IMG/VR virus record: IMGVR_UViG_3300049846_002076
Coordinates: 9,644 to 73,643 of that record
Strand: one strand, 5' to 3'
Origin: a virus
Length of the DNA: 64,000 bases
Part shown: positions 1,870 to 64,000 of the stretch, piece by piece
Layout: each line of letters begins with the position of its first letter
Numbering within the stretch: the first letter of the stretch is position 1
Notes under the pieces: model-generated
Databases searched by the model: none
Told to the model about the DNA's origin: nothing
Seen by the model: only the letters and a program-made list of their open reading frames with translations
Made by a program: the position numbers and the translations under genes

Positions 1870-2105
1870 GTCCTCACGAACTTGTCGGGGTAGTTGGTCT
1901 GCAGGCCCGGCCCTTCGACCTTGACCTGTTCGATCATCGACGGCGAATACCAGATCAACTGGCCGCGGTCGTTGCGCCGGCGGTAGCCGTTCGCGGTGAT
2001 CGCCGCGAAGTGGGTCATGGCCTGATCCTTGGTGCCCACCCGATACTGGTAGGAACCCGGGAAACCCTTGACGAAGATCGACAGCTTGTATTTGCCGCTG
2101 GTCAT
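1866..2105 (-). CDS. Hypothetical protein
   Basis: 79 aa; translationally coupled on both sides. Confidence 0.65.
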   Translation of the reverse strand: MTSGKYKLSIFVKGFPGSYQYRVGTKDQAMTHFAAITANGYRRRNDRGQLIWYSPSMIEQVKVEGPGLQTNYPDKFVRT

Positions 2106-3574
2106 GCTGAAACCTCCTTCTTGTCGTCACGAAAGCGCACGAACCGGGGGTGCCGCAGCGAACCGTCCGGCGTGACTTCGTGGTATTGGACTTCGATCAG
2201 GCGACCCACTACAGGATCGGGATCGGCAAGGTGTTCCTTGATCGTCCCGAACGATGCTCCGATGGGATCGCTCAAGTGCCCGATCCAAAGGTCTTGACGC
2301 TGCTCGTCGGTGAATCCACCCCCGACGTTCACGCTAACCCCCTTATAGTCGACGATCAGGCCACCAAGCATCCCGGCATACTTGCCTTCGCCCTCGAAGG
2401 CGCCGATAACCTTGAGGTCGAGCGTCTCCTCCGCCTTGATCTTCGACCATGCGTGGTGGCGCTTGCGGTAGTAGAGCGCCTTGGGATCCTTGACGATCAG
2501 ACCCTCGAGTCCTCGAGCCCTGCACGCCTCGTAGTGCTCGTGAATTTCCTCTTCGGAGTTCACGACTTTGGAGGGCAGCAGAACGATCGGGGCGCCGGCG
2601 GGGGCGCACTTCACGAACTCCTCGAGCCGAGCACGACGCTGTTCGTAGGTCTCCTCACCGACCTCGTCCTTCGGGCCGGGCTCGTTGAAGTCGTCCTGAA
2701 AGAGCAGGTCGAACACGCAGAGCTTCGCGTCGATCGCCTGGGCGTCCTTGCGACGCACATCGCCGACCGTCTTGTTGAAGCCACCCGAAACGACCTCTGC
2801 CTCGAGGACGAGGTAGCAGGCTTCGTCAGCCCGAAACTCTGCGTAGCAGGCGTCCATGTGACCGCAGTCGATCCCCGAACCATCTTCGCCACCCTCGGGG
2901 CCGCCCTCCTTGTCGTAGAGGTCGCACGCCTTCCGCATGAGCTCGCCGCGGTAGACTGCAGCCGCGTCGATCAGGGGAGCCTTCAGATGGTCGAAGGTGG
3001 TGAACTCCTTGCCCGAGCGGGAGAAGAAGCGCACCTCCTGGTCGTCCAGGTTGATGAAGGTCAGCACCCGCACGCCGTCGATCTTCGGTTCGGCCCGCAG
3101 CGGGAACGCGAGCTTGTGCTTGTGCTCCTTGTAGGGGTGGGCCAGCATGCAGTCGAACACCGTGATCGTCCCCGGCTTGGCCCGGTTGATCGTGCCCTCG
3201 GTGAAGCCCGCCCGCATGTCCTTGCTGATGATCCTCCAGAGCAACTCCTCGCTCTTGGGCGACAGGTCTTCCATGTGATCGACGAGCCAGTCGATCGCCG
3301 CATTCCCGGTCAGCCGTCGGGCGGCCAGGTCTTTCAGACCAGCCCACGTCGCGGCGGTGAACTGGTAGTCGGTGTTCTTCTTCGCCGGGTCGATCTTGGG
3401 GCGCTTGGCGATCCCGTAGGTCACGAAGGGGTCGTAGCACGCCACGAGCACGTCGGTGCCGAGGTCGTCCCCGAGCAGGGCGGCCACGAGAGCTTCCTTG
3501 TCCTTCTTGCCCGGGGTTGCGGCGATCTGTTCGATTGCGTCGAAAACTTGATCGGAATTCATTGTCTCTCCCAT
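2102..3574 (-). CDS. ATP-dependent DNA ligase (start 3574 or 3562)
   Basis: Motif I EPKIDGVR, VFDLL, EGLIVKD, WSKIK, C-terminal SLRHPRFVRFRDDK. Confidence 0.93.
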   Translation of the reverse strand: MGETMNSDQVFDAIEQIAATPGKKDKEALVAALLGDDLGTDVLVACYDPFVTYGIAKRPKIDPAKKNTDYQFTAATWAGLKDLAARRLTGNAAIDWLVDHMEDLSPKSEELLWRIISKDMRAGFTEGTINRAKPGTITVFDCMLAHPYKEHKHKLAFPLRAEPKIDGVRVLTFINLDDQEVRFFSRSGKEFTTFDHLKAPLIDAAAVYRGELMRKACDLYDKEGGPEGGEDGSGIDCGHMDACYAEFRADEACYLVLEAEVVSGGFNKTVGDVRRKDAQAIDAKLCVFDLLFQDDFNEPGPKDEVGEETYEQRRARLEEFVKCAPAGAPIVLLPSKVVNSEEEIHEHYEACRARGLEGLIVKDPKALYYRKRHHAWSKIKAEETLDLKVIGAFEGEGKYAGMLGGLIVDYKGVSVNVGGGFTDEQRQDLWIGHLSDPIGASFGTIKEHLADPDPVVGRLIEVQYHEVTPDGSLRHPRFVRFRDDKKEVSA

Positions 3575-3580
3575 CGTCAC

Positions 3581-3599
3581 ATTATAGTCAGTTTTGACT
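3581..3599. promoter_or_regulatory. -10 box (TATAAT, minus) abutting a perfect AGTCA-GTTT-TGACT palindrome
   Basis: attatAGTCAgtttTGACT, directly upstream of the ligase. Confidence 0.75.
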
Positions 3600-4151
3600 G
3601 GCGCGAGTAGCCAGCATTCGTTTCGCCGCTTCGAGCATCGACTCGCCCGGAAGCACGTGCAGCGGCCCATTCACGACCGCTGAACGCCGCTCCCCGCCGA
3701 GCTGTTCCTTCTCGATCTGGGCCTGGTGATCCTTCATCGCGCTGTTCAGGGCAGCCGCCATGTAGTCATCCCCGATGGGAGCCGGGCTGTTACCCAACGA
3801 TTTCTCGTTCTGTTGGGTAACGGGAGCCTTGGTGGGCATGAACAGCTCCTTCGCCTTGTCGACGAGAGCCGAGAGTCCGGTGAAGCGCACCCTTTCCTTG
3901 AAGTAGATCGCCCTGCCCTTCGCGAGCTCCTCACCACGCATCGTAGCCGCCACACACGCGGTCGTGTCGAGGTTCTTGATGCAGTTCCGGTCGACGAGCG
4001 CCAGGGCTTTGCCGTCTGCGTTCTTGAGGCGATGCAGGCAGAGGGCGTAGTGGTTGGGGCGTCCGATCGCCTCGCAGAACAGGGTGTATGCGTTGCGCTT
4101 GCCATCCGAGCTCGCCTCGAGCGGGATGATGGGTGTCGTTTCAGTTGCCAT
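3588..4151 (-). CDS. Hypothetical protein with a Cys-rich N-terminal half
   Basis: 187 aa; Cys/His residues in FC..HYALC..NC..AC; fits the operon. Confidence 0.7.
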   Translation of the reverse strand: MATETTPIIPLEASSDGKRNAYTLFCEAIGRPNHYALCLHRLKNADGKALALVDRNCIKNLDTTACVAATMRGEELAKGRAIYFKERVRFTGLSALVDKAKELFMPTKAPVTQQNEKSLGNSPAPIGDDYMAAALNSAMKDHQAQIEKEQLGGERRSAVVNGPLHVLPGESMLEAAKRMLATRASQN

Positions 4152-4350
4152 CGAGCTTCACCATTTCCTGTTGATCATTCGGTCTGTATTGTTCCACCAC
4201 GATTGGGCAGTCGTCGCAAGTCCAGGGATAGTTGTGGCGACAGTCGAACTCGCCCCAATAATCCCGGTAGCCGCCACAGCCCGCCTCGAGCACCTTGATG
4301 TAGCGCCTGGTTCCATGTTGGGGCGCCCTGTCGCTCACCACGTCCCCCAT
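4141..4350 (-). CDS. Small Cys-rich protein, possible zinc binder
   Basis: GCGGY...FDC...WTCDDCP; overlaps both neighbours. Confidence 0.55.
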   Translation of the reverse strand: MGDVVSDRAPQHGTRRYIKVLEAGCGGYRDYWGEFDCRHNYPWTCDDCPIVVEQYRPNDQQEMVKLDGN

Positions 4351-4808
4351 CCTTCAGGGCGGGGGCCGTCGTCGACGGGCTTCGGTTGCTTTTTCAGCTT
4401 GGGCGGTTCAGGTTCGTCCTCGAAAACCGGGACGTCAGTTCCATCGCCGAAGGTTGTGCGAATCTGGGCCGCGTTGGTTCTTCCGAAGAGCTTCTCGATT
4501 CGCTCGAAGAACTCATCCTCGTTGACCAACTCTTGTTCCTGGGCCTCGAAATTGTAGCCACGACCTCTCTTCTTCTTCACCATGCTGTTGAAATCGAGAT
4601 CGGCAGCGCGTTCGGTCATGTGTTTTGTGACCTTAATCTCGCCACCTCGCCCGATGTGCTCCAGCACAGCCGTGCTCTTGCCCCACTGGTGAACCGTGAC
4701 CCATCCGAGGTCGTTGTTCCCGAGCTTCCAGAGCTGATACGCCTTCGTCCCTTCCTCATGGGAGGCGAAGGAGTGCGAAATCATCGCTTTCTTTTTGATT
4801 GCGGGCAT
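4335..4808 (-). CDS. WGR-domain-like protein with a C-terminal GTW tag
   Basis: KAYQLW...HQWGK...FNSMVKKKRGRGY resembles a WGR domain; ends PRPEGWGTW. Confidence 0.7.
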   Translation of the reverse strand: MPAIKKKAMISHSFASHEEGTKAYQLWKLGNNDLGWVTVHQWGKSTAVLEHIGRGGEIKVTKHMTERAADLDFNSMVKKKRGRGYNFEAQEQELVNEDEFFERIEKLFGRTNAAQIRTTFGDGTDVPVFEDEPEPPKLKKQPKPVDDGPRPEGWGTW

Positions 4809-4830: not shown

Positions 4831-5961
4831 CTAGGCGTGCGAAGCTGCCGCATTCATTTGCCGACGCTCGATGGCGATGGCTGCGCCCGAGAGCTTGTCG
4901 AGCAGGGTCGCCCGGTAGAATGCTTCCCGCACCGTCGCCGCGGGCACTTCGTTGGGATCCTTCAGGGGCGGGAGCATCGCGATACGCACCCGCAGCCCGA
5001 TACTACGCAGCAGATCGCCTGACTCGATAGCCTGGTCGGTCGCGGGAATCTCGCCATCCCACATGATCGTCACTTCCTCGAGCCCACGCTCATCCTTCAG
5101 ACGTCGAAATTTCTCAAGCTGACTATCCTCAGTGCCGAACGACAGGTGCTTACCGAAGCTGCCGATGGGCACAACGTCACGCAGGGCCGGGTCACCGTCC
5201 AGGGCAGCCTTGGTTGCCGCGACGTCGAATGCGCCCTCGCCCATGACGACACGCCTGGTGCCGACGACGTTGTGTCCGTTGTAAAGGTGGGCGCCGGTGA
5301 CAGCGTAGCCGACGGGGAACAGGTATTTGGGATCCTGAGTGCCGAGGATGTCACGCCCTTGGAAGCTCACCAGCGTGCCATCAAGGTCGAACACCGGGAT
5401 GATGATCCGGTTGCTGAACCACTGAAACTGCCACAACCCGCTATCGTTGCGGTAACGGTGGTATCCGTTCAGACAGAAGCGCCAGTTGAAGTAGTGCGCG
5501 AGCGCCGCGTCGATCCCCCGGTTCTCCAGGTAAGCCAGGTTGCGCCCCTTGATCGGGATCGCGTAAGAAGCGGGGAGCTCCGGGCTGCCTTTCTCGACCT
5601 TGGTCTCCACCGAGGTCACACGCCGGGACTTCCAGCCGGTCTCCCGAGCAAGCCTCTTGATGAACTCCTTGACCGCATGAGCATGCACTCCTTCGCCCAA
5701 GTAGGCACGAATGAACGACCACTTGTTGTAGCCCTTCCTGTCCTGGGGGTGGTCGCCGGCGAAGCAGTTGCCGAGCCCAGTCTCCCGGTTGATGTAGACC
5801 TTCCAGCGATCGTCGCCGCAGACCGGGCATTCCCGCACGTTGTATTGCGGGCCACGGGAGCCCATTGTGGGCCGGTAGGTGATCCCCTCGCGGTCGAGAA
5901 AGACACCAATGTCGATCGCCTCGAGAAGCTCCTTGAGCTCCTGGTCTTCGTGCTGTTTCAC
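4831..5961 (-). CDS. DNA primase (zinc ribbon plus TOPRIM)
   Basis: ECPVC...GNCF; RIIIPV...SFQGR...KYLFP; GEGAFD; MWDGE; KDPNE. Confidence 0.9.
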   Translation of the reverse strand: MKQHEDQELKELLEAIDIGVFLDREGITYRPTMGSRGPQYNVRECPVCGDDRWKVYINRETGLGNCFAGDHPQDRKGYNKWSFIRAYLGEGVHAHAVKEFIKRLARETGWKSRRVTSVETKVEKGSPELPASYAIPIKGRNLAYLENRGIDAALAHYFNWRFCLNGYHRYRNDSGLWQFQWFSNRIIIPVFDLDGTLVSFQGRDILGTQDPKYLFPVGYAVTGAHLYNGHNVVGTRRVVMGEGAFDVAATKAALDGDPALRDVVPIGSFGKHLSFGTEDSQLEKFRRLKDERGLEEVTIMWDGEIPATDQAIESGDLLRSIGLRVRIAMLPPLKDPNEVPAATVREAFYRATLLDKLSGAAIAIERRQMNAAASHA

Positions 5962-8643: not shown

Positions 8644-8706
8644 TCCAATAGATCCTTTCTAGGTTCAAATCAAAAATACGCACCCATTATTGGGTGCCTG
8701 GCTTGG

Positions 8707-24562: not shown

Positions 24563-24572
24563 AATCGGACTC

Positions 24573-24595
24573 GGTCAGTAGTGACTGTTATTCTA
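24573..24595 (-). promoter_or_regulatory. GGTCA-GTAG-TGACT box downstream of a TAGAAT -10 element
   Basis: Box at 24573-24586; attcta at 24590-24595. Confidence 0.6.
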
Positions 24596-24597
24596 CG

Positions 24598-24933
24598 CTA
24601 AATGCGCCGCGCAAGCACGCAGATGACCTTTGCCATGGTCTTGAGCAGCGCTTTCGCATCAGCCAGGTTGTTCACGTTGTTCTCGACGTAGGTCGCAGCC
24701 TGCGCGGGCGTCATCCCCCGAAGGGTCTGCACCGCTGTGTCTGCACTCGCGGCGGCGGCATCGACCGTGTCGGGATGCGGGGACGGTTCGGGATCAGCCT
24801 GGGCGACAGTGTTGCCGAGCAGAATCCAGTCCAGAACCGCTTGATAGTCGCGGTTGCCCGGGTCGACGGGGATGTTCGCGCCATCCGAAAGTCTGATGAT
24901 GATGCCTGGGGTGCGAGAAAACTTGTAGCTCAT
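24598..24933 (-). CDS. Tail fibre assembly/chaperone-like protein
   Basis: IIRLSDGANIPVDPGNRDYQAVLDWI..GNT motif following fibre genes. Confidence 0.7.
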   Translation of the reverse strand: MSYKFSRTPGIIIRLSDGANIPVDPGNRDYQAVLDWILLGNTVAQADPEPSPHPDTVDAAAASADTAVQTLRGMTPAQAATYVENNVNNLADAKALLKTMAKVICVLARRI

Positions 24934-24948
24934 GATTTCGTCCTTTGG

Positions 24949-26064
24949 TTAGATTTCGGCGTCGAGTTTCGCGCCCCGCCCATAGGCGTAGTAAGTGCCT
25001 GCCGAACCTGCGCCCCATTGAATGCCCGTCTCGGACTTGGTTCCCGAAACGATACCGTTGTCAGTTCCAGGCAAGCTCGAGTTGCCGGCGTCGCCCGCAG
25101 TGTAAGTAGGCAAGGCGCGCATTTCAGCACGATGCTGAAAGCTCACGCCAACATATCCATCGGACGTGTAGCACCGGAACGAAGCGTGTGCGTGGTAGTA
25201 GTAGCGCGAACACAGGTCGAACTCTTCATGCGCCGTTCTGTGCTCGAAGTCGGTCGCGGCATCGCCCAACTCAAGCTGCACCAACTGGATCTTGAAGTCG
25301 TTCGACACCGAATCCATCGCGTTGACTTGGTTCGAGGTCGCGAGCAGCACCGAGCCGCTCCAGGTATTCGCTGCGCCTTGATATGTGGTTCCGCACGCGA
25401 GCGTCCAGAAAATCGACAGACCATTTCCAGTGTCGTAGAGCCAGGTGCCGGTTGTATCCACCGGGAAGGTCAGGACTTTTTTCTCCCACACGTTGCTCGC
25501 GTAGACCGTGTATTCCTTGATGTAGAAGCGGTTCGAGGCGCTGTTGCCGAGCGTGACGCAGAAGATTCCGGTCTTGGTGGACTTCACCCAGAACTGCAAC
25601 GTGATGTAGCGCGTGCCAGACTGTCCAAATCCCGCCCGGGCGATGTTCAGCCCTTCAACCTTCGTGCCGACGTAATACCAGTCGGTCGCGGCAATCGAAG
25701 TGTCCGCTGTCGTCACATCGACGTGGAAACAGTGCGTGCTGTAGAAGCCGGCATCGGCGATCGACGGGGCGTCAGCCGTCTTGAGAATGCTCACCGCTCC
25801 GGCACTCTGCGAGTTGTTCACGAAAGCGAAGCGGTCGGCGGTGTAACCCCCAAGGGCAGCAGCCGCGATCGTGATAGAGGTTCCCCGTTGCCAGGGATTC
25901 GTCGAAAAGTCCCCACCGATGATCAGGTTCTTGCCCTTGATGATCGGGGCGACCGTTGTCGGGGCTACGTTCTCCCAGGTCGTGCCATTGAAGCGCCAAG
26001 TGCGGCCAGCCGAAGTGTGCGTCTGTCCGGCGGCGGGGGAGGAAGGAAAGTTGATCGCGGCCAT
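24949..26064 (-). CDS. Secondary fibre/receptor-binding protein, paralog of the giant fibre C-terminus
   Basis: GKNLIIGGDFSTNPWQRG...VQLELGDAATDFE...CSRYY carbohydrate-binding-like domain. Confidence 0.8.
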   Translation of the reverse strand: MAAINFPSSPAAGQTHTSAGRTWRFNGTTWENVAPTTVAPIIKGKNLIIGGDFSTNPWQRGTSITIAAAALGGYTADRFAFVNNSQSAGAVSILKTADAPSIADAGFYSTHCFHVDVTTADTSIAATDWYYVGTKVEGLNIARAGFGQSGTRYITLQFWVKSTKTGIFCVTLGNSASNRFYIKEYTVYASNVWEKKVLTFPVDTTGTWLYDTGNGLSIFWTLACGTTYQGAANTWSGSVLLATSNQVNAMDSVSNDFKIQLVQLELGDAATDFEHRTAHEEFDLCSRYYYHAHASFRCYTSDGYVGVSFQHRAEMRALPTYTAGDAGNSSLPGTDNGIVSGTKSETGIQWGAGSAGTYYAYGRGAKLDAEI

Positions 26065-29000
26065 TAGAGTTCGGCGTCAGCCGTCCAGTAGTAGACAAGG
26101 TAGCCACCGGCAGCGGTTCCATTTGCCGTGGCATAGCAGCGCCAGGAACGCTTTGTTGTGACGTTGGCAGTTGGGGCCGACGCAGGAAAATGACCGCTGT
26201 TTCCGGTGTAGTAGTAGGTCATCGTAGGCGCAGCACGCTTCGCAACAAGGAAAAATCCAATGCTGTAATACTGTCCACCGTTTGTGACATCGCCAGAAAT
26301 CAGACCGTCCGAGTTGGTGCCATCGTGCTGCTCGTAGTAACGCTGGCAGCGGGCGGTGACCATCTCCACGTCGACAACATCAAACGGGGTCGCAACCGGG
26401 CCTGCTTCGAGCTGCACAAGCTGGATCTTGAAGTCGTTGGCAGTCGAGTCGAGGGCGTTGACCTGGTTAGCGGTTGCCAAGATCGCATTCGCCGCCCATG
26501 TGTCGCCCGTTCCCTGATAGGTGGTTCCCGCCATGAGCGTCCAACCGAGCCACAGACCGATGCCGGTGTCGTAGAGCCAAGTCCCCGTCGTGTCGACCGG
26601 AATCGTGACCGTCTTCTTTTCCCACACGTTGCTGCTGCTGACGGTGTATTCCTTGACGATCGTCCGGTTGGCGGCACTGTTGCGGAAGAAGACGCAATAC
26701 ACCCCGGTCTTCGTCGCTTTGACCCAGAAGGACAACGTGATGTCTCGAGTGACAGACTGCCCGAATCCCAGGAACGCGCTGTCCAGACCCTCGACCTTGT
26801 AGGACAGAAAAGCATAGTCACCAGCGGCGAGCGAAGCGTCGGCTGTCGTGACGTCGACATGGAGACAGTGAGTCGAATAGACCCCCGCCTGAACGACAGT
26901 CGGTGCGTCCGCTGTTTTTGCAATCGTGACCGCACCCGCGTTCGATGCGCCAAACTGCCAGCGGTCAGCGGTATATGCGCCATTCGCGGCGGCGGCAAAG
27001 CTCGTCCCACGCTGCCAGGGGTTCGTGGTGAAGTCGCCGCCGATGATCAGGTTGCGACCAGCAACAGGCTCGGGGCCCGGAGTTGCGGAGACCCACTGCG
27101 ACGACGTTCCGTCGTTGTAGTAGATGTAGAGGTTTCCGTTCTCGCTGTTCCACCACAGGGCGCCCGCTGCGGGGTTTCCCGGGGCGGTTGCCGACACGAT
27201 GACTGCGTCGACGGGCGGAGCAAGCGACGCTGCAACCCACTGGTTCGACGTGCCATCCGAATACCAGACGTAGAGGTTGCCCTCCTCACTGTTCCACCAG
27301 AGGTCACCGGCAGCGGGAGAGCCGGGCGGTGTGGTCGAGGTCGTGACCGTCGCACCGCCAGCCGTTCCGAAGGGGCCGACCGTGACGCCGTTGATGCGAG
27401 CATACATGCCCGCGGTCGTTGTCCAGATGTCTCCATCAGCGGGCGTTGTCGGAGCGACACCGTGCGTGATACGCACCGGGGCCAGCGCAGTCGTTCCTGC
27501 GGGCAGTGTGAGCTGTGCGGACGACGAGGGGGCGATCCCAAGGCCAGTCGTGCCGGCATACTGGAAGAAGGCCGTCTCGAGAGCCCATCCCCACCCGTTT
27601 TCGCCGACGATCGCAACGTAGTTGCCACCACCGCTCTTCCAGCCCACGTAGCCACGGCGAGTCGCGTCAGGAGTGAAGAAGCCGATGTAGCCAGGGCGCG
27701 TTGCATCGCCATACTGCATCGAAATGCTGCCGTTCGAAGCAGAAATGATCGAGAGGTTGCCCGCAGTGACCGTTCCCGTAAACGTGGGCGATGCCAACGG
27801 GGCATAGGTCGCTGCCGCACTCGCAGATTTGAGGTAGCCCTGCCCGACCACATAGGCAGTCGTAGCGAGCTGCGTGGTGTTCGTGTCGACTGCGGCAGTC
27901 GGCGCAGCCGGGACACCAGTGAAAGTCGGGGAAGCGAGCAGCGCATACGAAGCGGCTGCAACACCGCCAAGCTGCGAAGCGTTCGACGCAGTGCCGGTGA
28001 TTCCCCCGGTGACGATCAGCGCCCCGTCCGTCTTGAGCGTGCCCGCGGCACTCTGATACAGGTTCGCCGAAGTGCTCCCGAAGTAGATGCCGTTCGCTGC
28101 ACCCGTCGCGGCGGGAAGCTGGATCTTGCCCGCGCTCGCGGTATCGGTCGTTGTGCCGACGAGCAGGTTGCCCGCGGCAGCCACGAGGTAGGAGGTGCCC
28201 GTTCCCGACAGGCGATTCTGGGCGGTTCCCGTGTTCGTCTTGACGTCGAAGTTGCCGAACAGGGCGTTGTTCGTCATGTATTTCGAGACGAACGGGAGCT
28301 CGAGTTCGGATGTCCAGCGGTCACACAGGTAGTTGAGCGCGGTGACCCAGACCAGGTTGGTGCCGTCGGTCTGGATCGTGAGTTCGATGTCGGTCAGGTA
28401 GTTGGCACCCGTGACCGCAAAGGCCATCACTTTGTAGCTGCCGATCGTCGAGATGTCGGTGGGCGCTGCCCAGGCAGTCCATGACCCGTTGTATTTGCCG
28501 CGGGCACTGATGGCGACGTAGGCGTTGTTCGTCGAGTAGAACGAGACGTAGAGCGTGCCCTGCGGATAGGTAATGCCCGCTGCAGGCACGCCCGACTGGT
28601 TCGCCATGCTGATGTTCATGACGTGCGTCGTGCTCGTCGTGAGCTGCACGGGGCCGTCGAACCCACCATCGAACAGTGCGGCGCTGCCCAGGTTGCCGGT
28701 CACGTTCGTAACCGTGAAGCGCTTGTCGGCGTGATAGAGGACGTCGCAGAGTTCGTTGAGACGAATCTGACGCTGCCCGAAGACCGGAATGATCGACGTG
28801 AAGTCGAGGTTGTTGATCTTGGTCGTGCCGGTAATCGTGGCACCGGCAGCCGTCAGGGTGCTCGATGCGGCAATCGTTGTTGCGCTGAGTCCGCCGACCA
28901 GGGTGAGGGCGCCTGCACCCGACAGGGTCGCAGCAAGCGTCGTGCCGCCATACCACCTGAACTGCGAAGCGGTCGTCGGGACAGAATTCCACAGTGTCGA

Positions 29001-32000
29001 GCCATCAATGCCGATCGCATAGTCGGCGCTCGAAGCGCCGATGTTCGGATACAACATGACGCGAGTGCCGGCCGAACGGGTCGTAAACGACGGGGGCGCG
29101 ACGCCGCTCGTCGTGTAGAGCAGGAACTTTCCACCACTGATGGTCTGGTCGTTCGTGAAGTTGTTCGCGCCTGCCAGGGTCGGGAAAGCCGTCGAGTCGA
29201 GACCATCGAGGAAGTCAGCATTGAGACCCGAACCAGAGCCACCCGTCAGGGAGTCGAGTTCGAATGCCGTCATCGAGGCAATCCACCACACCAGGTTCAC
29301 GCCCGGGCTCGGGGCCGGCGAACCCGTCACGTAGATGTGACCGGAGCTCGAGAACGAGCCGCTATCGCCAGATTCGACCACCCGAATGTAGGTTTCCCAC
29401 TTGCCTGTTCCTGCGTCGCTGGTAAGGAAGTAGTTCGCGCCGTTCGTGCCGACCGAGTTGCTGGCGTAGACGAACTTGTAACCCGCCGGGAGCTTCGCTC
29501 GGAACATCTGCACGAAGCGCTTGTTCAGGGCGGAGTTGACAATTTGCATCACTCCACCGAACCCCGGGGTTGCCGTGTTGTCGGTGTGGCGCACCTCAAG
29601 GCAGTAGCCGGTCGAATTGGGCACTCCCGAGATCGCGTTCGTGCGCGTGACCGTAACCACGCCGTTGCCAGCGTTGTTGTAGGCAGCGACCGAGTTGACG
29701 CCCGTGGCGAATTCTTCGTCGTTGAAGAGGCGCTTGCCCTGGCGCATGGCGTAGAACATCGGGTGCGGATTGCCAACCGCCGTGTTCGTCTCGTTCAGCC
29801 AGCCCATCCAGGCATAGATGTCGGGCGTGCCGATCGACCATTCCTGGCGAGCCCCACCGTCCCGGATCGTCACGGTGAAGAAGTTGCGCCCGTTCGACTC
29901 GTAGAACTGGTCGGAGGGTTTCCCGCCCATGAACTGCGCCGCAGCGGGGAAGGTGATCGTCTGCCCCTGCTGACGGAAGCCATTGATCATCTCGATGACG
30001 ATCGTTTGGGTCTTTCCAGCCGCGGCGATTCCCGAGAGCGCGATCGTGAAGCTCGAAGACTGGGCCGGCGCCGTGAATGCGACGTGACCGTATTTGTCGA
30101 CTTCGATCGTGACTGTGCCGCCACCGGCGACAGCCCCGTAGTCGTTGAAGCGCTCGAGCACGCGCCAACCATCGAGCACGCCAGCAGCGGTCACGCTCGT
30201 CGGGGTGATGTTGCCAAGCCCGAGGGTGATCTGCGGGGTCGTCGTGGGGTTGGCAACGCTCTGCGTGATCCCGTTGTTCGCAGTGACGCCGACCGTCGTG
30301 ACTGTGCCGCCACCCACCGTGACGTTGAGGGCGCCACCCGAGAACTGCAGCCCGGTTCCGAGCGTGATCGTTTCGACGTTGCCGGTGCCCGCGGTCGAGC
30401 GTCCGAGCAGCACGCCAGTCGCCACCTGGGCCATGTGCGAGAGCGCAACCGCGTTCGCGGTGATCGAGGTCGCATTGCCGACAGACGTCACGGGGCCAGT
30501 GAGGTTGGCGTTCGTCGTGACGGTCGCGGCATTGCCCGTGATGTTGCCCGTGAGCGTTCCGGTGACGTTCCCGACGAGGTTGCCAGTGAAGGTCGTCGCT
30601 GTGACCGCGGTGAGGCCGGCGAGGGACGTCGAGGTGCCACCCAGGGAGATCGCGGTCGTGCCGATCGTCACGTTGCTGTTGACGAGGGCCGCGTTCGGGA
30701 TCGAGGTCAGCGCTGCACCGGAGCCTGAGAAGGCGCCCGAAAACGTGGTCGCTGTGAGCGTGCCGGTGCTCGGGACAAACGAGAGCTTGGTCGACGAAAT
30801 CTTCTGGGCCTGGTTGCCGGATGCCCCCGCGGCCCACAGCGGGTAGACTGCAGTCGCGGTTGCGTTGTCGTCGGTGACCGGGTTCGTTCCCGTGACCGAC
30901 ACAGCCCCGCCAGAGATGCTCAGACCAGTTCCGAGCGTGAGCACCTCGATGTTGCCCGTCCCCGCAGTGGAGCGCCCCAGAAGCGTGCTGGTGGCGACCT
31001 GGAAGAGTTTTGCGGCCGTCAGGGAGTTCGCGGGAATGGTCGTCGCATTGCCGACCGAGGTCACATCCCCGGTAAGGTTCGAGACACCCGAGAACGCCCA
31101 TTCCTGGCGCGTGCCGCCATCGCGGAAGGTCACCGTGAAGAAGTTGCGCCCGCTCGAGGCCAGGGCGTTGTTCGGCGGGGGCAGACCGCCCGCCATCCAG
31201 TAGGCGTTGACCGGGTAGTTGATCGTGCCGCTACCGGCCCGCTGGCCGTTGATCATCTCGATCAGGACGGTCTGCGACTTCCCGGAAGCGGGGATGCCAC
31301 TCAGGGCGATTGTGAAGTTGGCGGTCGTGTCGACGGGGGCAGTGAAGGCAGCATGCCCATACTTGTCGACTTCGATGGTGACGATCCCGTTCGACGCCAG
31401 GGTGCCGTAGTCGTGGAACGCTTCGGTGATTCGGGAGGCGTCGATCTTGTCTGCGGTCACCGTCCCAGTGAAGGTGGGGCTCGCCGCACCCACGAACGCC
31501 GCCGGAGTCAACCCGCGCCACGTGTCTGCGTCGAGCCCCGAGCCAGTGCCATCGTTCTCGGAGTGCCAGATTTTCGATGCGGCGTTCGCCCCCATTGTCG
31601 TGAGGTCGAGATAGCCGCCACGGAATGTGCCCGCACCTTCCCAGAAGCGAACCCTGTTGTTATTGACGTCGAAGTAGACGTTTCCTGCGAGCGTCGTGCC
31701 CCCGTTGCTCGCCTTCTGAAGGATGATCTGTCCACCCTCACCAGTCGCAGCATTTTCCGCGTTGACGGTCAGGGCGTCGGTCGTCAGGGAGGTCGCAATC
31801 GAAGCCCCAAGCTCCGCGGTCGCGAAGTAGCCCTTGCGAACCCGCTTCGAGCTCGAGCCGACGTCGTAGGAATTGTCGACCCCGGGGATGAGCTGCCCAG
31901 TCGAGTCGACCGACCAGCGCAGAAGGGCATTGGTGAGGATCTCGAAGTCCGACAGCCCGGTCGTGCCGACCTTGAGCTTGCGGGTGGCGCCGGCGCCGGC

Positions 32001-58782: not shown

Positions 58783-59033
58783 TCGGGCTTCCTCTTCATG
58801 ATGGATTCGATTGTTGGGGAGCAGAAGCCCACGACCTTCTCGCGAGTGTCCACGAGCTCGATGCGGGACTTGTTCTGCAGCACGATTTCGGAGCGCTTCG
58901 GCTTCGTGTGGCGCTCTTGGCGGTCACTTTCGTCGGGCTCGAACTCGCTCCCGTTTTCGCACTCGTCACAGACTTCTTCGTCGCGGTGATTCCGGTAGTA
59001 GCAGAACTCGCAGCACGGGAATTTGTTGCTCAC
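58779..59033 (-). CDS. Small Cys-rich protein
   Basis: CCEFC...CDECENG; coupled on both sides. Confidence 0.6.
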   Translation of the reverse strand: MSNKFPCCEFCYYRNHRDEEVCDECENGSEFEPDESDRQERHTKPKRSEIVLQNKSRIELVDTREKVVGFCSPTIESIMKRKPE

Positions 59034-59689
59034 TCGGGTCTCTCCGTGATCAGGATGTGAACCAGGGCATTGCCGGCGTTCGTGAGGGAGTCTTCGGTGA
59101 GGAATCCTTGCACCCGCATCGTCTTCTCGATGAGCGCCTGCACCTTCGCGACATCGGCGACCGGCACCTTGAAGCGCATGATCTGGTGGGTGGCTTCAGC
59201 TTTCCCGCTCCCCGCTTCAGGAACTTCGCCCTTGTCGAGCGCGTCAAGATCGTCGAGCGCTATAGTTGAAGCTGCGAAGATCGACGCAAGGTCGTCGCTC
59301 GACATCGGGAGGAAAGATTGCAGTTCGTCAACGTCGCCCAGGCCCTTCATGAGTTCAGCGAGACGCAGCACGTCGTCCTCGCCGTAGCGGCCGTTGTCGA
59401 CGAGACCGATCTCCTGTGCGGTCTCGTCGCTGACCGTGCCGACGTTCGCGACGGGAATCTCGGTGTAGCCGAGCTTCACCGCGGCACGCCAGCGGTGCTC
59501 TCCTCCCAGAATCTCGTAGGTGCCACCCGGGAGCTCCCGGACGATCACCGGCTTGAACATGCCGCCCAAAGCCTTGAAGCGCTTGATCGACTCTTCGATC
59601 TTCAGCTCGTTCTCGGGGCTGACGACGTTGGTGTTCCAGGGGTTCGGACGCAGCAGGCTTGCGTCGACCGTGAGTTGCTTGAGTGGCAT
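59030..59689 (-). CDS. ParB/Srx N-terminal domain protein
   Basis: LRPNPWNTN...KPVIVRE...YEILGGEHRWRAA...DNGRYG. Confidence 0.88.
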   Translation of the reverse strand: MPLKQLTVDASLLRPNPWNTNVVSPENELKIEESIKRFKALGGMFKPVIVRELPGGTYEILGGEHRWRAAVKLGYTEIPVANVGTVSDETAQEIGLVDNGRYGEDDVLRLAELMKGLGDVDELQSFLPMSSDDLASIFAASTIALDDLDALDKGEVPEAGSGKAEATHQIMRFKVPVADVAKVQALIEKTMRVQGFLTEDSLTNAGNALVHILITERPE

Positions 59690-59694
59690 GGCTC

Positions 59695-59753
59695 CCTTAT
59701 ATAAGGTATGATCGTCAGTCAGCGCTGACTATATCCGACTTCCTTCTATAAGG
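59695..59753. promoter_or_regulatory. Divergent control region: perfect palindrome AGTCAGCGCTGACT flanked by CCTT-N4-AAGG elements
   Basis: Box at 59717-59730; CCTTATATAAGG at 59695-59706; CCTTCTATAAGG at 59742-59753. Confidence 0.75.
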
Positions 59754-59761
59754 CAACCCCT

Positions 59762-61510
59762 GTGATCCTGACCATCGCCCACAACGCCGTGAACGCCCGC
59801 GTGACGCATGCCGGCACAACCCCGCCTGATGCCGTCATCACCTTGATTCAAGAGACTCTTTCCTACAAGGTCGAGGGGGCGGAATACACGGGCGCTTTCC
59901 AGTCCCACCAGTGGAACGGGCGGTCGAACTTCTACGACTACGAGACCCACACCTTCCCGACCGGGTTCGTCGCGATCGTGCTCGCCGCCCTGAAGAAGGC
60001 GGGCCACCAGGTCAACCTCGCCCGCCGGCCGTTCCCGCCGGCGCTCGGCCCCGCCTTCCCGATCGTCGACGACTTTCCCGAGGACGTCCGCTACGACTAC
60101 CAGCGCGAGATCGTCGAGAAGGTGCTTCGGCACGGGCAGATCATCGCCCGGGTCGCAACCGGGGGTGGCAAGAGCCGGATCGCCCGCCTGGTCTACAAAC
60201 GCATCTCGCGCCCGACCCTTTTCCTGACTACCCGGGGGATCCTCATGCACCAGATGGCTCGCTCGGTGCGGGCGATGGGCGAGCGGGTGGGCATTCTGGG
60301 CGACGACGAATGGAGCCCCGTCCCGGGCTTCAACGCGGGCATGGTGCAGACCTTCGCCGCCCGGTTGCGCGAGACCACCTTCGCGAAGGAATACGACGCG
60401 ATCGCCCAGGGGATCGCCGATGAGGAGGAGAAGCAGATCCTCGCCCTGCGGAAAAAACTCAAGGATCGTGGAGTTCGGGGGGCGGAATTCGAGTCCCAGG
60501 TGGCTGAACTCAACGATCGGTTAGTGGCTGCTCGCCCCTCCGAGGGGGTGGTGAAGGCCAGGGCTGCCGCGGCGGCAAACGCACAGCTCGAGCGCCGGCG
60601 CGAGACCCTGGAGCTGCTGCAGAAGTTCGAGCTCGTGATCCTCGAGGAGGCGCACGAGGCGAGCGGCAACAGCTACTTCGACATCATGAGGATGTGCAAG
60701 AACGCCCACTACCGGCTGTCGCTGACCGGCACGCCCTTCATGAAGGAGAGCGAAGAGGCGAACATGCGCCTGATGGCGAGCTCGGGCCCGGTCGCAATCT
60801 GGGTGTCGGAGAAGACCCTGATCGACCGCGGGATCCTCGCGAAGCCCTACTTCAAGTTCATCAGGCTCTCCGACGAGCTCCCCGAGGGGGAGATCGAGGT
60901 GAAGGTGACCGGGACGGCGCCGGCGGTGCGGCGCGTGAAGCTCATGAAATCGACCCCCTGGCCCAAGTGCTACGAGGTCGGTGTCGTCGGGGCGATCAAG
61001 CGCAACGCGATGATCGTCTACGAGGCGAAGCGGGCGGTCGACCACGGCCTCTCGGTGATGGTGCTCGTCCAGCACAAGAAGCACGGACGTCTGCTGCAGT
61101 CGCACCTCACCGCGGCAGGCATGCGGGCGAACTTCATCATGGGCGAGCACGACCAGAACGAGCGCGATGCCGCGATCAACGCCCTGAAGAGCCGCAAGAT
61201 CGACGTGCTGATCGGGTCGACAATCCTCGACGTGGGCGTTGACGTCCCGGCGATCGACATGGTCATCATCGGGTCGGCCGGCAAGGCGGAGGTCGGCACC
61301 CGGCAGCGCATCGGGCGCGGACTGCGGGAGAAGAAAGGACGCCCGAACGTCTGCTTCATCGTCGACTTCGACGACTGGCAGAACAACCACCTGCGCGACC
61401 ACTCGAAGCAGCGTCGGGCGATCATCGAAGAGACCCCAGGCTTCGTCGAGGGGATCGTCAACGACTTCGACTACGCGGCACACGGCTTCTCGAAAGTCGC
61501 TGCAGCGTGA
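59762..61510 (+). CDS. Superfamily 2 DExH-type helicase with a helical insertion
   Basis: YDYQ, ATGGGKS, ILEEAHE, LTGTP, ILDVGVDVP, QRIGRGLR. Confidence 0.92.
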   Translation: MILTIAHNAVNARVTHAGTTPPDAVITLIQETLSYKVEGAEYTGAFQSHQWNGRSNFYDYETHTFPTGFVAIVLAALKKAGHQVNLARRPFPPALGPAFPIVDDFPEDVRYDYQREIVEKVLRHGQIIARVATGGGKSRIARLVYKRISRPTLFLTTRGILMHQMARSVRAMGERVGILGDDEWSPVPGFNAGMVQTFAARLRETTFAKEYDAIAQGIADEEEKQILALRKKLKDRGVRGAEFESQVAELNDRLVAARPSEGVVKARAAAAANAQLERRRETLELLQKFELVILEEAHEASGNSYFDIMRMCKNAHYRLSLTGTPFMKESEEANMRLMASSGPVAIWVSEKTLIDRGILAKPYFKFIRLSDELPEGEIEVKVTGTAPAVRRVKLMKSTPWPKCYEVGVVGAIKRNAMIVYEAKRAVDHGLSVMVLVQHKKHGRLLQSHLTAAGMRANFIMGEHDQNERDAAINALKSRKIDVLIGSTILDVGVDVPAIDMVIIGSAGKAEVGTRQRIGRGLREKKGRPNVCFIVDFDDWQNNHLRDHSKQRRAIIEETPGFVEGIVNDFDYAAHGFSKVAAA

Positions 61511-61616
61511 AGTTGGTCTTTGCGCTTAAAAACGCTGATTTTAAAGGGTTTTTGCGTCTATAGACAAAAAAAGATGTCAGAAACCATACCATTTTTGCGT
61601 GCGTGATCTATAATCA

Positions 61617-61856
61617 GTGATCACTGACTGCATCGGAGCCCGCCCCTTGTTTCCTAAGTCGACCCCCGTGGTGTTCATCGTGCAGCTCCTCTGCATCACT
61701 CTCGCGGTCATCACCGTCGCTGCCCTGACCGGAAACGCCCTGGCCCTGCTCGGCTTCTGCTTCATGTGGTCGCACCCGCCCATCTTCGCCCCGGGCGACC
61801 GTGAGAACGAGGATAGCGTCGACGCACGCGGAATCGGGTTCGTTCAAAAAGAGTAG
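61617..61856 (+). CDS. Small membrane protein (start uncertain)
   Basis: Two hydrophobic stretches; ends DARGIGFVQKE; TATAAT at 61609-61614. Confidence 0.5.
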   Translation: MITDCIGARPLFPKSTPVVFIVQLLCITLAVITVAALTGNALALLGFCFMWSHPPIFAPGDRENEDSVDARGIGFVQKE

Positions 61857-61915
61857 CTTTACGCTTTAGCATTTTCGAGCTATAATATGCTCGTCACTGT
61901 TAATCTGGAGAGACC

Positions 61916-62221
61916 ATGAAAACGAAAGGCGACCGCTTCCACCACACCTCGATCTGGTGCCACGAGACGAACGAGATCCTCGAGTCGATCTGCGCGAAGT
62001 TCTCGGTGCCCAAGTCGAGCCTGCTCGAGGTGTTGCTCCTGGGGGCGAACGAGGCCGGCCTCGACCTCACCGACGTGATCGTCTCCGGCAAGGCGAAGCG
62101 CGAGATCGTGAATCCCGACGGCCGCAAGCTGCGTATGGCGACCCTGTCGAAGCTCGCGAGTCTCCCGCCTGCAGAACTCGAGCGCCTCATCGCACACGCG
62201 AAGGGAACCGAAGCGTCCTGA
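61916..62221 (+). CDS. Small putative DNA-binding protein (ribbon-helix-helix-like)
   Basis: HHTSIW...ILESICAKFSVPKSSLLEVLL; TATAAT at 61881-61886 and GGAG RBS. Confidence 0.65.
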   Translation: MKTKGDRFHHTSIWCHETNEILESICAKFSVPKSSLLEVLLLGANEAGLDLTDVIVSGKAKREIVNPDGRKLRMATLSKLASLPPAELERLIAHAKGTEAS

Positions 62222-62237
62222 GTCCCTGGGAGGACAC

Positions 62238-62810
62238 GTGAAGCAGCACGACATTGGCAAGCACGTCGTCGAAGTGTGCTTGTCGAGCCCGACCCGCCTG
62301 TTCTCGCAGACGCTTATCACGATCGCGGCGAACATGCCCTTCACCTTCGTGCGTGGCGTCGAGATCGGCTACCAGTATCGCAGCGACCGCGGCTACCGCT
62401 TCTCAAACATCGAGGACTTCGCGATCGCCGGCATCATGACCTTCGTCGGCTACAACCCCGGGACGCACCACGTCTCGGACAGCTTCCGCAAGCCCTTCGA
62501 CTACGAGAACGCGATCGGCTCGACGAGCCGGCGCCACCTCGAGTCGATGGTCTGGTTCATGGAGCACGCCGACGGCGACTGGGTCGACGATTTCATGACC
62601 GCGCTCTACACCGCGCACGAGATCGAACCCAAATCGGCGATCCCTTTCCCGCGTGCCGTCGAGATTTACCGCGATGCCGAGAAAGCGGGCGACGACCCCT
62701 ATCAAACGCTTCTCGAGGCGACGATGAAAAGCTCGTTCGCGAAATCCATCAAACCCATCGGCGATTCAGGCGCCCCCGCGGGCGACTCGACCGAGATCGG
62801 AACCTGGTAA
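62238..62810 (+). CDS. Hypothetical protein ending in GTW
   Basis: GGAGG RBS, GTG start; ends APAGDSTEIGTW. Confidence 0.75.
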   Translation: MKQHDIGKHVVEVCLSSPTRLFSQTLITIAANMPFTFVRGVEIGYQYRSDRGYRFSNIEDFAIAGIMTFVGYNPGTHHVSDSFRKPFDYENAIGSTSRRHLESMVWFMEHADGDWVDDFMTALYTAHEIEPKSAIPFPRAVEIYRDAEKAGDDPYQTLLEATMKSSFAKSIKPIGDSGAPAGDSTEIGTW

Positions 62811-62816
62811 CCCTCA

Positions 62817-63461
62817 ATGGCCGCAATCTTCCCCTCGATCTTCGGTGCGAAGTCGTCGTCGAAAGAGGAGCTCAAGCTCAGAGAGCTCATCAAGACGGCA
62901 GTCGAAGAAACGAAACCCTCGAAGACCGACTTCATGAAGTCGGTCGAAGACCTGATGCGGCAGGCCGACAAGAAGGGCATCGAGCCCGGCGAGATTCTGA
63001 CGATCCCACTGCCCGACCCCCTGGGCGGATCCCGCACAACGATCTGGAAGAAAAAAGACATCGCGTGGCCCTCGAAGAAAGAAGACCTCGCCGCCTGGAT
63101 CGACGAAGCCGCTGATCTCAGTGGCACCGCGGCACCCGGGTTTCCCATCGGCGGCACGACAATCGCAGACCCAACTTGGGTAGGAACAAACCCAATCTTG
63201 GGTGGCGGCATCGGCGGCATCGACGGCACTTCGAAGATCAGTGACTTCATGAAGCGCATCGAAGAGGCCGAGCGTCAAATCGAGAGCCTCACCCGGCAAA
63301 ACGCTGCGCTCACCGCGGTCATCAAGGAAAACGGCGTCACGACTGAGCAGCTCGAACGTCTCGCGAGGGCTTGCGGCGACTCGTTCGTGAGAGAGACCAC
63401 CGTCCCGATTCTGCCGACGCCGACCGATGCGCCCGAAACCCCCGAGTCGGGCACCTGGTAG
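62817..63461 (+). CDS. Hypothetical coiled-coil protein ending in GTW
   Basis: Ends PTPTDAPETPESGTW. Confidence 0.75.
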   Translation: MAAIFPSIFGAKSSSKEELKLRELIKTAVEETKPSKTDFMKSVEDLMRQADKKGIEPGEILTIPLPDPLGGSRTTIWKKKDIAWPSKKEDLAAWIDEAADLSGTAAPGFPIGGTTIADPTWVGTNPILGGGIGGIDGTSKISDFMKRIEEAERQIESLTRQNAALTAVIKENGVTTEQLERLARACGDSFVRETTVPILPTPTDAPETPESGTW

Positions 63462-63480
63462 AGGAAAGGAGCCAACCCCC

Positions 63481-63840
63481 TTGACGATCAGAAAATACGA
63501 AGGCTGGTATCGCCATCGCGAAACGAACGCCTGCGTCTATGTGAGAAACACCTGCCTGTCGAAAAACGGCGACGAAGTTGGCGCTGCAGTCATGTCGGCA
63601 CAGCTCAGAAACAGCGAGCTCGTCGTGCTCGAAGGAACGCCAATCGTCTTCATCCCGTTCAAGAACTTCAGAGACTACCAGCGCGTGAACGCAGGTGGCG
63701 CCCCCCTGTTCGACGACGAGATGAACACGATCTGGCTGCGCGATGTCGTCACCCGCGAAGACCTGGATCCCGCACACCTCGAGCGACTTGGCATCGAGCA
63801 CATCCCCACCGCGACCGACGAGGACGTCGGCACCTGGTAA
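63481..63840 (+). CDS. Hypothetical protein ending in GTW (TTG start re-called)
   Basis: AAAGGAG RBS before TTG at 63481; ends IPTATDEDVGTW. Confidence 0.72.
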   Translation: MTIRKYEGWYRHRETNACVYVRNTCLSKNGDEVGAAVMSAQLRNSELVVLEGTPIVFIPFKNFRDYQRVNAGGAPLFDDEMNTIWLRDVVTREDLDPAHLERLGIEHIPTATDEDVGTW

Positions 63841-63881
63841 CCTGCAACAAAATGTTCATTAGGTGCGCCAAGGCGCTCTAA

Positions 63882-63930
63882 TGATCAACATAGTGATCAT
63901 TATCCCGCATAGTGATCACTATGTTGATCA
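63882..63930. repeat. 18-bp perfect inverted repeat with a nested 16-bp palindrome
   Basis: TGATCAACATAGTGATCA (63882-63899) and TGATCACTATGTTGATCA (63913-63930); CATAGTGATCACTATG at 63908-63923. Confidence 0.85.
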
Positions 63931-63950
63931 CGGATCCCAGGGCACTTGGC

Positions 63951-64000
63951 GAAGTATAAGGATCGAATCCTACAGGGGCGCCAGGCTGGAAGTATAAGGA
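63951..64000 (+). repeat. Direct repeat GAAGTATAAGGA, 38-bp period, cut by the window edge
   Basis: Copies at 63951-63962 and 63989-64000. Confidence 0.65.

Follow-up and report, generated by a model that had tools for sequence, protein, structure and literature searches.

Four proteins with a common C-terminal end

The DNA analysed here, called the window below, is a stretch of 64,000 nucleotides covering bases 9644-73643 of a single virus contig of 73,643 bp (IMG/VR record IMGVR_UViG_3300049846_002076; 61.8% G+C). Four open reading frames (ORFs) of the window encode proteins which end in the same tripeptide, Gly-Thr-Trp (GTW), and this C-terminal tag is the subject of our study. Three of them are adjacent on the plus strand. 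Gene 1 (62238..62810) encodes a 190-aa protein of no known family ending in ...DSTEIGTW, gene 2 (62817..63461) a 214-aa protein with a coiled-coil-like stretch ending in ...TPESGTW, and gene 3 (63427..63840) a protein of 137 aa as listed, ending in ...DEDVGTW. The start of gene 3 is uncertain, and its frame overlaps gene 2 by 35 nt. Gene 4 lies on the minus strand (4335..4808) and encodes a 157-aa protein in which a WGR-like domain is followed by a helix and a Pro/Lys/acidic linker ending in ...PEGWGTW. The last 12 residues of all four proteins contain 2-4 Asp/Glu, with Trp at the end. Positions and ends had both been put forward in a sequence-only reading of the window, and they were verified from the translations. 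A fifth candidate, encoded on the minus strand at contig 4244-4540, falls outside the window. Its 98 aa end in ...PPSDKPSTGEGVGTF (...PSTGEGVGTF), and the frame occupies an otherwise empty gap and has a 4-nt overlap with the stop of the upstream gene.

The sequence-only reading held that four identical ends containing Trp are very unlikely to occur by chance among roughly 80 genes. The improbability was borne out with a smaller gene number, about 70 in the contig according to calls from our own crude codon model. Four of the 70 genes end in Trp, and all four end in GTW. Among the 529 six-frame ORFs of at least 40 aa in the whole contig, 15 end in Trp and only the same four end in GTW. GTW accounts for 4 of 21,703 internal tripeptides, and the enrichment of GTW directly before a stop is significant, with a binomial P of 6.4e-11 for four or more of 70 genes. 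When 70 internal tripeptides were drawn at random, any tripeptide reached four or more copies in 0.04% of 20,000 trials.

The bodies of the four window proteins are unrelated, as had been supposed; all-against-all BLASTP of 36 tagged ORFs from three genomes revealed no similarity among them. Within one genome, tagged proteins match one another only over their last 8-37 residues. Gene 1 had no Pfam or PHROG match, and a search of 1.84 billion representative proteins revealed no credible homologue, its seven matches at E<=1e-3 being itself and six long repeat proteins; an Atlas search (best score 0.77) gave no lead. Gene 2 had a sub-threshold DivIC match only and belongs to no Pfam or PHROG family. 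Its only database relative, P0018, is 97% identical and keeps the same tail. For gene 3, no match was found in Pfam, in PHROGs or by tblastn in the genomes of relatives. Genes 1 and 4 have no close relatives in IMG/VR, and the gene 4 alignment gave no confirmed match against metagenome and genome contigs. Elsewhere in the window, among the tail-region genes, a 136-aa ORF (23981-24391, minus strand) ends in ...FNVFAWAGDY, which is aromatic-rich and off the tag pattern.

The four tags are written in different codons. Gene 1 uses ATC GGA ACC TGG TAA for I-G-T-W-stop (62796..62810, plus strand), gene 2 TCG GGC ACC TGG TAG for S-G-T-W-stop (63447..63461, plus strand), gene 3 GTC GGC ACC TGG TAA for V-G-T-W-stop (63826..63840, plus strand), and gene 4 TGG GGG ACG TGG TGA for W-G-T-W-stop (4335..4349, minus strand). 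Comparison of these stop-proximal codons agrees with the earlier claim that they differ.

Related ends in SSU5-like phages and plasmid-like elements

The phage is SSU5-like, as had been proposed from its sequence. Its gene set and order match those of Salmonella phage SSU5, Pseudomonas Nickievirus phages, Stenotrophomonas phage ANB28, Xanthomonas phage JGB6 and Rhizobium phage RHph_N1_15, with protein identities of about 25-60%, and the genomes of these relatives measure 103-117 kb. The closest polymerase found, 53-55% identical to that of the window, is in a Castellaniella element; in the phage collection, 38 of 1305 matching records cover at least 80% of this polymerase. An IMG/VR search with the helicase alone yielded one truncated contig. 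At one end the contig begins with the polymerase gene, and at the other it breaks off 160 bp past gene 3 (window 63841-64000). In the relatives, 35-50 kb containing RecA, SbcCD, ribonucleotide reductase (RNR) and many small genes lie between the helicase-side array and the polymerase gene. The contig is probably a fragment, and because this block is missing, its count of tags is a lower bound.

All seven genomes that were read fully contain proteins with aromatic-G-x-W/F as their last residues or one residue short of the end, usually after Pro. The expectation that relatives would keep G[TS]W was therefore correct in part; related ends are present in every genome read fully, but the tag is wider than G[TS]W and its core is aromatic-G-x-W/F. 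The only homologue of protein 4 detected, P0002 (44% identity), which is encoded on a 114-kb contig, likewise keeps a related end, ...EEWGAW.

ANB28 has at least 13 tagged proteins. An unbroken run of eight annotated genes after the helicase has YGxW ends, and five more proteins, encoded elsewhere, have the ends YGGW, YGEW, IGAW, GSW and GDW. JGB6 has at least 8, and small genes right after its helicase end in ENYGGW, ETYGAW, QEYGVW, DQYGDW and DNYGQW. In the JGB6 record (OQ436456.1), the polymerase, terminase, capsid, RNR and tape measure genes are in pieces, which fits uncorrected indel errors. Eight proteins of RHph_N1_15 end in [NMH][FY]GRF. Pseudomonas phage Nican01 has 11-12 proteins in which [FYW]-G-x-[WF] is followed by a single small residue, and two more with GSW or GGW ends. 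SSU5 has two proteins ending in WATW. A DNA pattern for Y-G-x-W-stop occurred 11 times each in ANB28 and in the related IMG/VR record G001, 0-1 times in SSU5, Nican01 and RHph_N1_15, and 0 times in the reversed control. Tail-tip J-like proteins of ANB28 (73921-77328), JGB6 (9622-10398) and G001 (22903-30714) end in R-V-R-[IM]-G-[IV]-W. This loose match is probably a structural coincidence, and these proteins were left out of the tag counts.

A GTDB scan with the helicase alignment gave 38 loci, of which the 35 with at least 5 kb were read within 10 kb of the helicase. In the Castellaniella element, five genes in a row have [FW]G[TSL]W ends there, and 2-3 further ends (NWGSW, DWGSW, FAGW) were found in 140 kb read of its contig. 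A Paraburkholderia locus has four tagged genes (YGSW and similar), an Oxalobacter locus two (WG[TS]WS), and an Ancylobacter locus one PNFGRF end; an unassigned contig from a metagenome-assembled genome (MAG) and a Yersinia plasmid-like contig have one WATW each. The remaining 29 loci showed no tag within 10 kb of the helicase. Five contigs with the phage module (L042, L046, L053, L057 and L078) are binned as Saccharibacteria, Actinomycetes, Chloroflexi, Fimivivens and Bacillota MAGs. Their genes resemble those of proteobacterial elements, and they are likely mis-binned plasmid-like contigs.

Judged from these sequences, the general form of the tag is Pro, 1-3 residues, and aromatic-Gly-x-Trp/Phe, which is either C-terminal or followed by a single residue. 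In 64 curated tails, position -4 is Tyr, Phe or Trp in 48, and the commonest residue is Pro at -6 and -7 and Asn at -5; the pattern used to select these tails fixes -3 and -1, and only positions -4 to -8 are informative. The linker before the tag is rich in Pro and Glu. Residues -26 to -7 contain 9.7% Pro and 12.2% Glu in 48 tagged proteins, compared to 4.2% and 7.6%, respectively, in 848 untagged proteins. This linker is probably flexible.

The tag tracks the lineage and not the protein family, and orthologues either retain it or adopt the flavour of their lineage. Four orthologous pairs of ANB28 and JGB6 keep the tail, and tagged proteins are encoded at the position after SbcC in SSU5, Nican01 and RHph_N1_15. 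The Gly of the tag is encoded by GGA, GGC, GGG or GGT with all three stops in use, and the Arg of the GRF ends by CGC, CGG, AGA or AGG, which represent both Arg codon families. This synonymous variation indicates selection on the peptide and not on the DNA. The proposal that the tail is a short linear motif selected as a peptide is thus upheld by its unrelated carriers, by the end kept in P0002 and by the synonymous codons.

One may argue that the tag has no function of its own and is left over from duplication of 3' gene ends, or is a side effect of a DNA signal such as the ribosome-binding site or start codon of the next gene. The genes of the arrays overlap or abut, their last codons also serve the start region of the next gene, and some tails hold GGAG-like strings. 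However, the codons vary synonymously, down to both Arg codon families, the bodies are unrelated up to the last 8-37 residues, and orthologues in different lineages keep different flavours. Tags also occur on genes without a close downstream gene, such as gene 3 and the gene of protein 4, and TGG and TAY are not parts of a ribosome-binding site. This explanation is largely refuted, and we give it hardly any weight. Taken together, the codon variation, the unrelated bodies, the lineage swaps, the isolated genes and the Pro- and Glu-rich linker exclude simple paralogy, a DNA repeat and a side effect of ribosome-binding sites.

Gene context and the WGR-like domain of protein 4

Protein 4 is the tagged protein of the window with a putative fold assignment. 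Its WGR-like domain comprises residues about 7-96. A profile of protein 4 matched the WGR domain of PARP3 in the PDB with E 0.0023, while a Pfam search gave no WGR match at E 0.01. In the AlphaFold2 model (mean predicted local distance difference test score, pLDDT, 65.6), the last ~35 residues are modelled as disordered and the tail has a pLDDT <50. The WGR domains of PARP1/2/3 were among the top Foldseek matches of this protein with probability 0.99-1.0, but with E about 1e-2. The VIA Z values were 6.2-6.3 for PARP WGR and 6.2-7.2 overall, which is middling. Residues W42-G43-K44 and G84-Y85 are invariant in the small protein 4 family (alignment A5).

The gene of a DnaG-type primase (4831..5961, minus strand; PHROG 47, Pfam DNAG_N) lies directly upstream of gene 4, and that of an ATP-dependent DNA ligase (2102..3670, minus strand; PHROG 114) lies downstream. 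The slot between primase and ligase is occupied by a tagged protein also in SSU5, Nican01 and RHph_N1_15. The WGR-like protein at this place ends in WGTW here, in WGAW in P0002, in NFGRF in RHph_N1_15 and in WGAFG in Nican01. The RHph_N1_15 protein is homologous to protein 4 (BLASTP 4e-7 in a five-sequence set); the SSU5 protein is unrelated and ends in WATW.

The plus-strand block with genes 1-3 is headed by a UvsW-like DEAD/DEAH helicase gene (59762..61510, plus strand; PHROG 16; Pfam Helicase_C, ResIII, UvsW_N). By synteny, tagged arrays are placed directly downstream of the helicase orthologue in JGB6, ANB28 and the Castellaniella element as well. Directly upstream of the tagged genes of the window is an untagged 101-aa ORF (61916..62221, plus strand) with no family match. 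A sigma-70-like promoter match, TTTACG-17-TATAAT (61858..61886, plus strand), which agrees with the consensus at 10 of 12 positions and is a consensus match only, precedes this ORF and the three tagged genes. It is the best match in the scanned region 59000-64000, where 5 were found and 0.6 expected. The 101-aa ORF probably shares a transcription unit with the three tagged genes. As for the helicase itself, many UvsW-like helicases (this one and those of L041-L055) end in G-[LF]-G-F-x-K-x-A-A or similar, here ...AHGFSKVAAA, with a Gly-Phe pair inside.

Gene context bears on the idea that the tail is a virion-loading signal, with the tagged proteins packed in the procapsid and injected with the DNA. 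A shared terminal tag after a flexible linker is precisely the means by which encapsulin cargo and T4 internal proteins are addressed, and many tagged proteins are small and of unassigned function, as injected anti-defence proteins often are. Against this, the tagged genes belong to blocks for replication, recombination and accessory functions and not to the structural genes, and neither a dCMP deaminase nor folds that bind nicks or ends would be likely as cargo. The sigma-70-like match before the array of the window also hints, weakly, at transcription by the host polymerase. We consider virion loading very unlikely.

The contig further encodes an RNA-ligase-like protein, guanylate kinase, DNA ligase, primase, DnaB, PhoH and structural proteins, together with a MoxR-type AAA+ protein, a CobT-like von Willebrand factor A (vWA) protein, two ABC-type ATPases, two ParB-like proteins and the UvsW-like helicase. 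Its DNA polymerase is a full-length DnaE-type Pol III alpha of 1127 aa. The last 248 residues of this polymerase (contig 186-929, minus strand) belong to the uracil-DNA glycosylase (UDG) superfamily (Pfam PF03167, E 5.7e-10). The genes of MoxR and the vWA protein are core in 7/7 genomes, inside the replication module, and the DxSxS motif of the metal ion-dependent adhesion site (MIDAS) in the vWA domain is intact. The CobT-like vWA protein (contig 7135-9375, minus strand) has a low-complexity stretch of ~180 residues, rich in Glu, Lys, Gly and Ser, that separates the CobT-like N-terminal region from the vWA domain.

A possible docking tail and its known counterparts

We propose that the GTW end would be the version in this phage of a clade-wide docking peptide, which ends a probably flexible linker on many otherwise unrelated proteins, most of them small, in SSU5-like phages and phage-plasmids. 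The tail may tether all tagged proteins to one common hub, which would most likely be part of the phage DNA replication or repair machinery. The mode would be akin to the sliding-clamp 'tool-belt', or to T7 polymerase binding the aromatic-ended tails of its single-stranded DNA-binding protein (SSB) and helicase. That the tail is a functional motif with a shared partner seems quite probable. That the partner belongs to DNA replication or repair could go either way, and the proposal as a whole, a clade-wide peptide tying many proteins to one hub most likely of this kind, is evenly poised between right and wrong.

A replication or repair hub appears most likely because the clients with an assigned fold act on DNA or nucleotides and because the tagged genes are found in replication and recombination modules. 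The fold-assigned proteins are the WGR-like protein and, in ANB28, two BRCT proteins and a dCMP deaminase. The sites are the primase-ligase slot, the position after SbcCD, the position beside an epsilon-like exonuclease, and the helicase operon.

Several points weigh against this proposal. No test identified a partner, and the readers named in the sequence-only reading, an AAA+/vWA-type chaperone or unfoldase, a protease, a capsid-loading receptor or a host hub, are candidates only. No credible Pfam match was obtained for window genes 1-3, nor for 7 of 10 tagged proteins of ANB28/JGB6, 10 of 10 further ones of Nican01 and 8 of 10 of RHph/SSU5/Nican01; because most tagged proteins are without a recognisable fold, the link to DNA metabolism rests on few proteins and on neighbourhood. 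All seven fully read genomes are tagged, so that presence and absence of the tag cannot point to genes that co-vary with it. In the crude codon-model calls, some tagged ORFs have low scores, the JGB6 record is full of split genes, which renders its ORF ends less reliable, and the selection pattern of the curated tails limits what they can tell, as stated above. None of the five tails of this contig has the Gln at -5 or the Leu at -2 of the clamp-binding consensus QL[SD]LF. The pronounced lineage flavours GRF, YGxW and WATW suit a fast-evolving phage-encoded receptor better than a host pocket under strong conservation.

Pfam SSB and DnaN models found no match in the five complete relatives, all of which have a DnaE-type polymerase. 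Because the polymerase is present and these models are unmatched, the relatives probably use host hubs. One specific form of the docking proposal takes the host beta clamp as the hub. The tails would be divergent clamp-binding motifs in its hydrophobic cleft, which the DnaE-type polymerase of the phage must also use, and would build a phage tool-belt or crowd out host clients. The clamp-binding consensus is QL[SD]LF (or QLxLxL); phage Mu proteins use terminal clamp motifs, with QHDLF and QPDLF in MuC (PMC12867686), and QLPLW of ImuB is a functional clamp motif ending in Trp (PMC11791113). The tails have a QL[SD]LF-like layout, with Tyr, Phe or Trp at -4 in 48 of 64, a small residue at -3, an aromatic end, and frequent Asn, Asp or Gln at -5. 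ANB28 and JGB6 add an epsilon-like exonuclease to the Pol III alpha that all five relatives have without a DnaN match, and WGR, BRCT and deaminase folds are among the clients. In addition to the mismatches of the window tails at -5 and -2, the near-invariant Gly at -3 is absent from the clamp consensus, lineage flavours are hard to reconcile with a conserved cleft, and eight to thirteen rival clients per genome are unusually many. We therefore rate the host clamp as an unlikely reader of the tails.

Complex prediction of protein 4 residues 113-157 with two Castellaniella DnaN copies (10-row alignment) gave ipSAE values of 0.03 and 0.04 against a mark of 0.32, which count neither for nor against binding. 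The clamp is that of a stand-in host, and the set-up differs from the calibration of the tool. A Kluyvera genome holding an SSU5-like element (L058) has, on a separate contig, a second, divergent DnaN-like ORF (G011:C24:63111-64295; open frame 439 aa) with 26% identity to the Castellaniella clamp.

Alternatively, the tails may be read by a phage-encoded receptor, either the MoxR AAA+/CobT-like vWA pair beside the polymerase or another core protein, such as Pol III alpha with its UDG-like domain, DnaB, the primase, the UvsW-like helicase or the ParB/ABC block. vWA domains are known peptide receptors; the vWA domain of Ku, for example, binds Trp-containing motifs of repair factors. The pair is core in all seven genomes and retains its MIDAS motif, the tagged arrays are in an operon with the UvsW-like helicase, and lineage-specific flavours fit a co-evolving receptor. 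Vibrio phage ICP2, however, has a CobS/CobT pair and the tag in 0 of its 69 tabulated annotated proteins, which weakens the MoxR/vWA version slightly, being one such genome. Coordination of the metal by the terminal or a nearby carboxylate would not be general, as the aromatic residue is not the last in Nican01 and the upstream residues are not acidic in RHph_N1_15. Taken by itself, we find this receptor reading as improbable as the clamp. A broader version, which we put forward tentatively as a lesser possibility, is a private addressing system of SSU5-like phages and phage-plasmids, the widespread enterobacterial ones among them. In such a system, the near-terminal aromatic-Gly-x-Trp/Phe tail would bring 5 to 13+ accessory proteins per genome, in a set that varies, to a dedicated phage-encoded receptor (e.g. 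MoxR/vWA or the polymerase) that co-evolves with it by lineage, and a new gene would join by gaining the tail. There is a substantial chance that the receptor makes the tag a system of its own.

Four other candidates were tried and rejected. A conserved 236-aa protein (PHROG 2500), considered as a gp45-like clamp, gave an all-helical model with mean pLDDT 56. The clade-specific C-terminal part of the polymerase is of the UDG superfamily and not a tau-binding domain. An HslV-like peptidase was discarded as a universal receptor, as the Pfam Proteasome model is unmatched in the 5 relatives. RNR was dismissed since NrdB tails are of a different type. In RHph_N1_15 (L030), an NrdB-like protein (84943-85950) and a small glutaredoxin-like protein (87607-87897) end in ...DDDEF and ...EDDDF, respectively. 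This acidic run with Phe is a second, different shared tail in that genome, probably of the known RNR subunit-docking type.

If one hub reads the tail, as in our docking proposal, a single pull-down would show where in the cell dozens of 'hypothetical' proteins belong. These are encoded by a large group of phages and phage-plasmids that includes elements frequent in Enterobacterales, Pseudomonas, Xanthomonas, Stenotrophomonas, Rhizobium and Burkholderiales. The docking proposal, if true, would also supply a simple sequence rule for spotting further clients, a clear case of a linear motif spread over unrelated viral genes with a flavour changing by lineage, and possibly a tag that can be transferred to engineered proteins to direct them to the phage replication site. 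Were the hub the host clamp, the known sequence range of clamp-binding motifs would widen considerably.

Among known systems, clamp-binding motifs, including those of Mu MuC/Mor, resemble the tag in their length of 5-6 residues, their often terminal position and their layout, which is hydrophobic at -4, small at -3 and aromatic at the last position. They likewise have many unrelated carriers in DNA metabolism, one hub that reads them, and known use by phages. The tails of the contig (EIGTW, ESGTW, DVGTW, GWGTW and GVGTF) agree with the clamp consensus at -4 (4 of 5), in the small residue at -3 and in the aromatic residue at -1. The tag differs in its near-invariant Gly at -3, its usual Trp end, its lineage flavours and its up to 13+ carriers per 110-kb genome.

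The replication proteins of T4-like phages and T7 offer further parallels. The C-terminal peptide of RB69 gp43 sits in a hydrophobic pocket of gp45 (PMC3012046). Like the tag, the T4/RB69 gp43 end is a hydrophobic/aromatic C-terminal peptide after acidic residues which docks on a replication hub. T4, however, encodes its own clamp and loader, whereas clamp models are unmatched in the five complete SSU5-like relatives. In T7, the tails of gp2.5 and gp4 bind a basic patch of the gp5 polymerase (PMC12339929). Here too, unrelated proteins (an SSB and a helicase-primase) have acidic tails with an aromatic end (Phe) and one reader. The window tails share the acidic and aromatic character, with 2-4 Asp/Glu in the last 12 residues, a Trp end and disorder in protein 4. 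T7 has two carriers and SSU5-like phages 5 to 13+, and the Gly-x-aromatic core and the upstream Pro are not T7 features.

The C-terminal tip of SSB is an acidic tail ending in Ile-Pro-Phe. It is similar to the tag in its disordered linker and its short aromatic-ended tip for hydrophobic pockets, but the direction is reversed, with the tail on a single hub and its readers among many partners, and the sequences differ. The SSB family was unmatched by the four window proteins in Pfam and PHROGs and in the 5 complete relatives in Pfam.

C-terminal degrons on unrelated proteins are well known, and the ssrA-type degron has an apolar Ala-Ala-type end read by ClpXP or similar. This raises the question of whether a host or phage protease or unfoldase might use the tail to clear a protein set at a set time. 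An HslV-family peptidase is annotated in the Nican01 and RHph_N1_15 records, but the Pfam Proteasome/HslV model is unmatched in the five complete relatives. Enzymes such as dCMP deaminase are tagged, and the tails end in G-T-W after acidic residues, unlike the apolar ssrA-type end. A degron has, in our estimate, only a very slight probability.

The T4 capsid-targeting sequence and the C-terminal cargo peptides of encapsulins are terminal address peptides on unrelated proteins. In McdB, an invariant C-terminal Trp is reported to be the key residue for carboxysome binding (PMC11321042). Cargo tags and McdB address a shell or compartment, whereas the gene context and the client folds of the tag point to DNA metabolism. 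The tail was not found described in full-text literature searches, which did not cover supplementary files. That a hub can read a terminal motif shared by several proteins is known in principle; new are this motif, its up to 13+ unrelated carriers per genome, its lineage-specific flavours and the clade in which it occurs.

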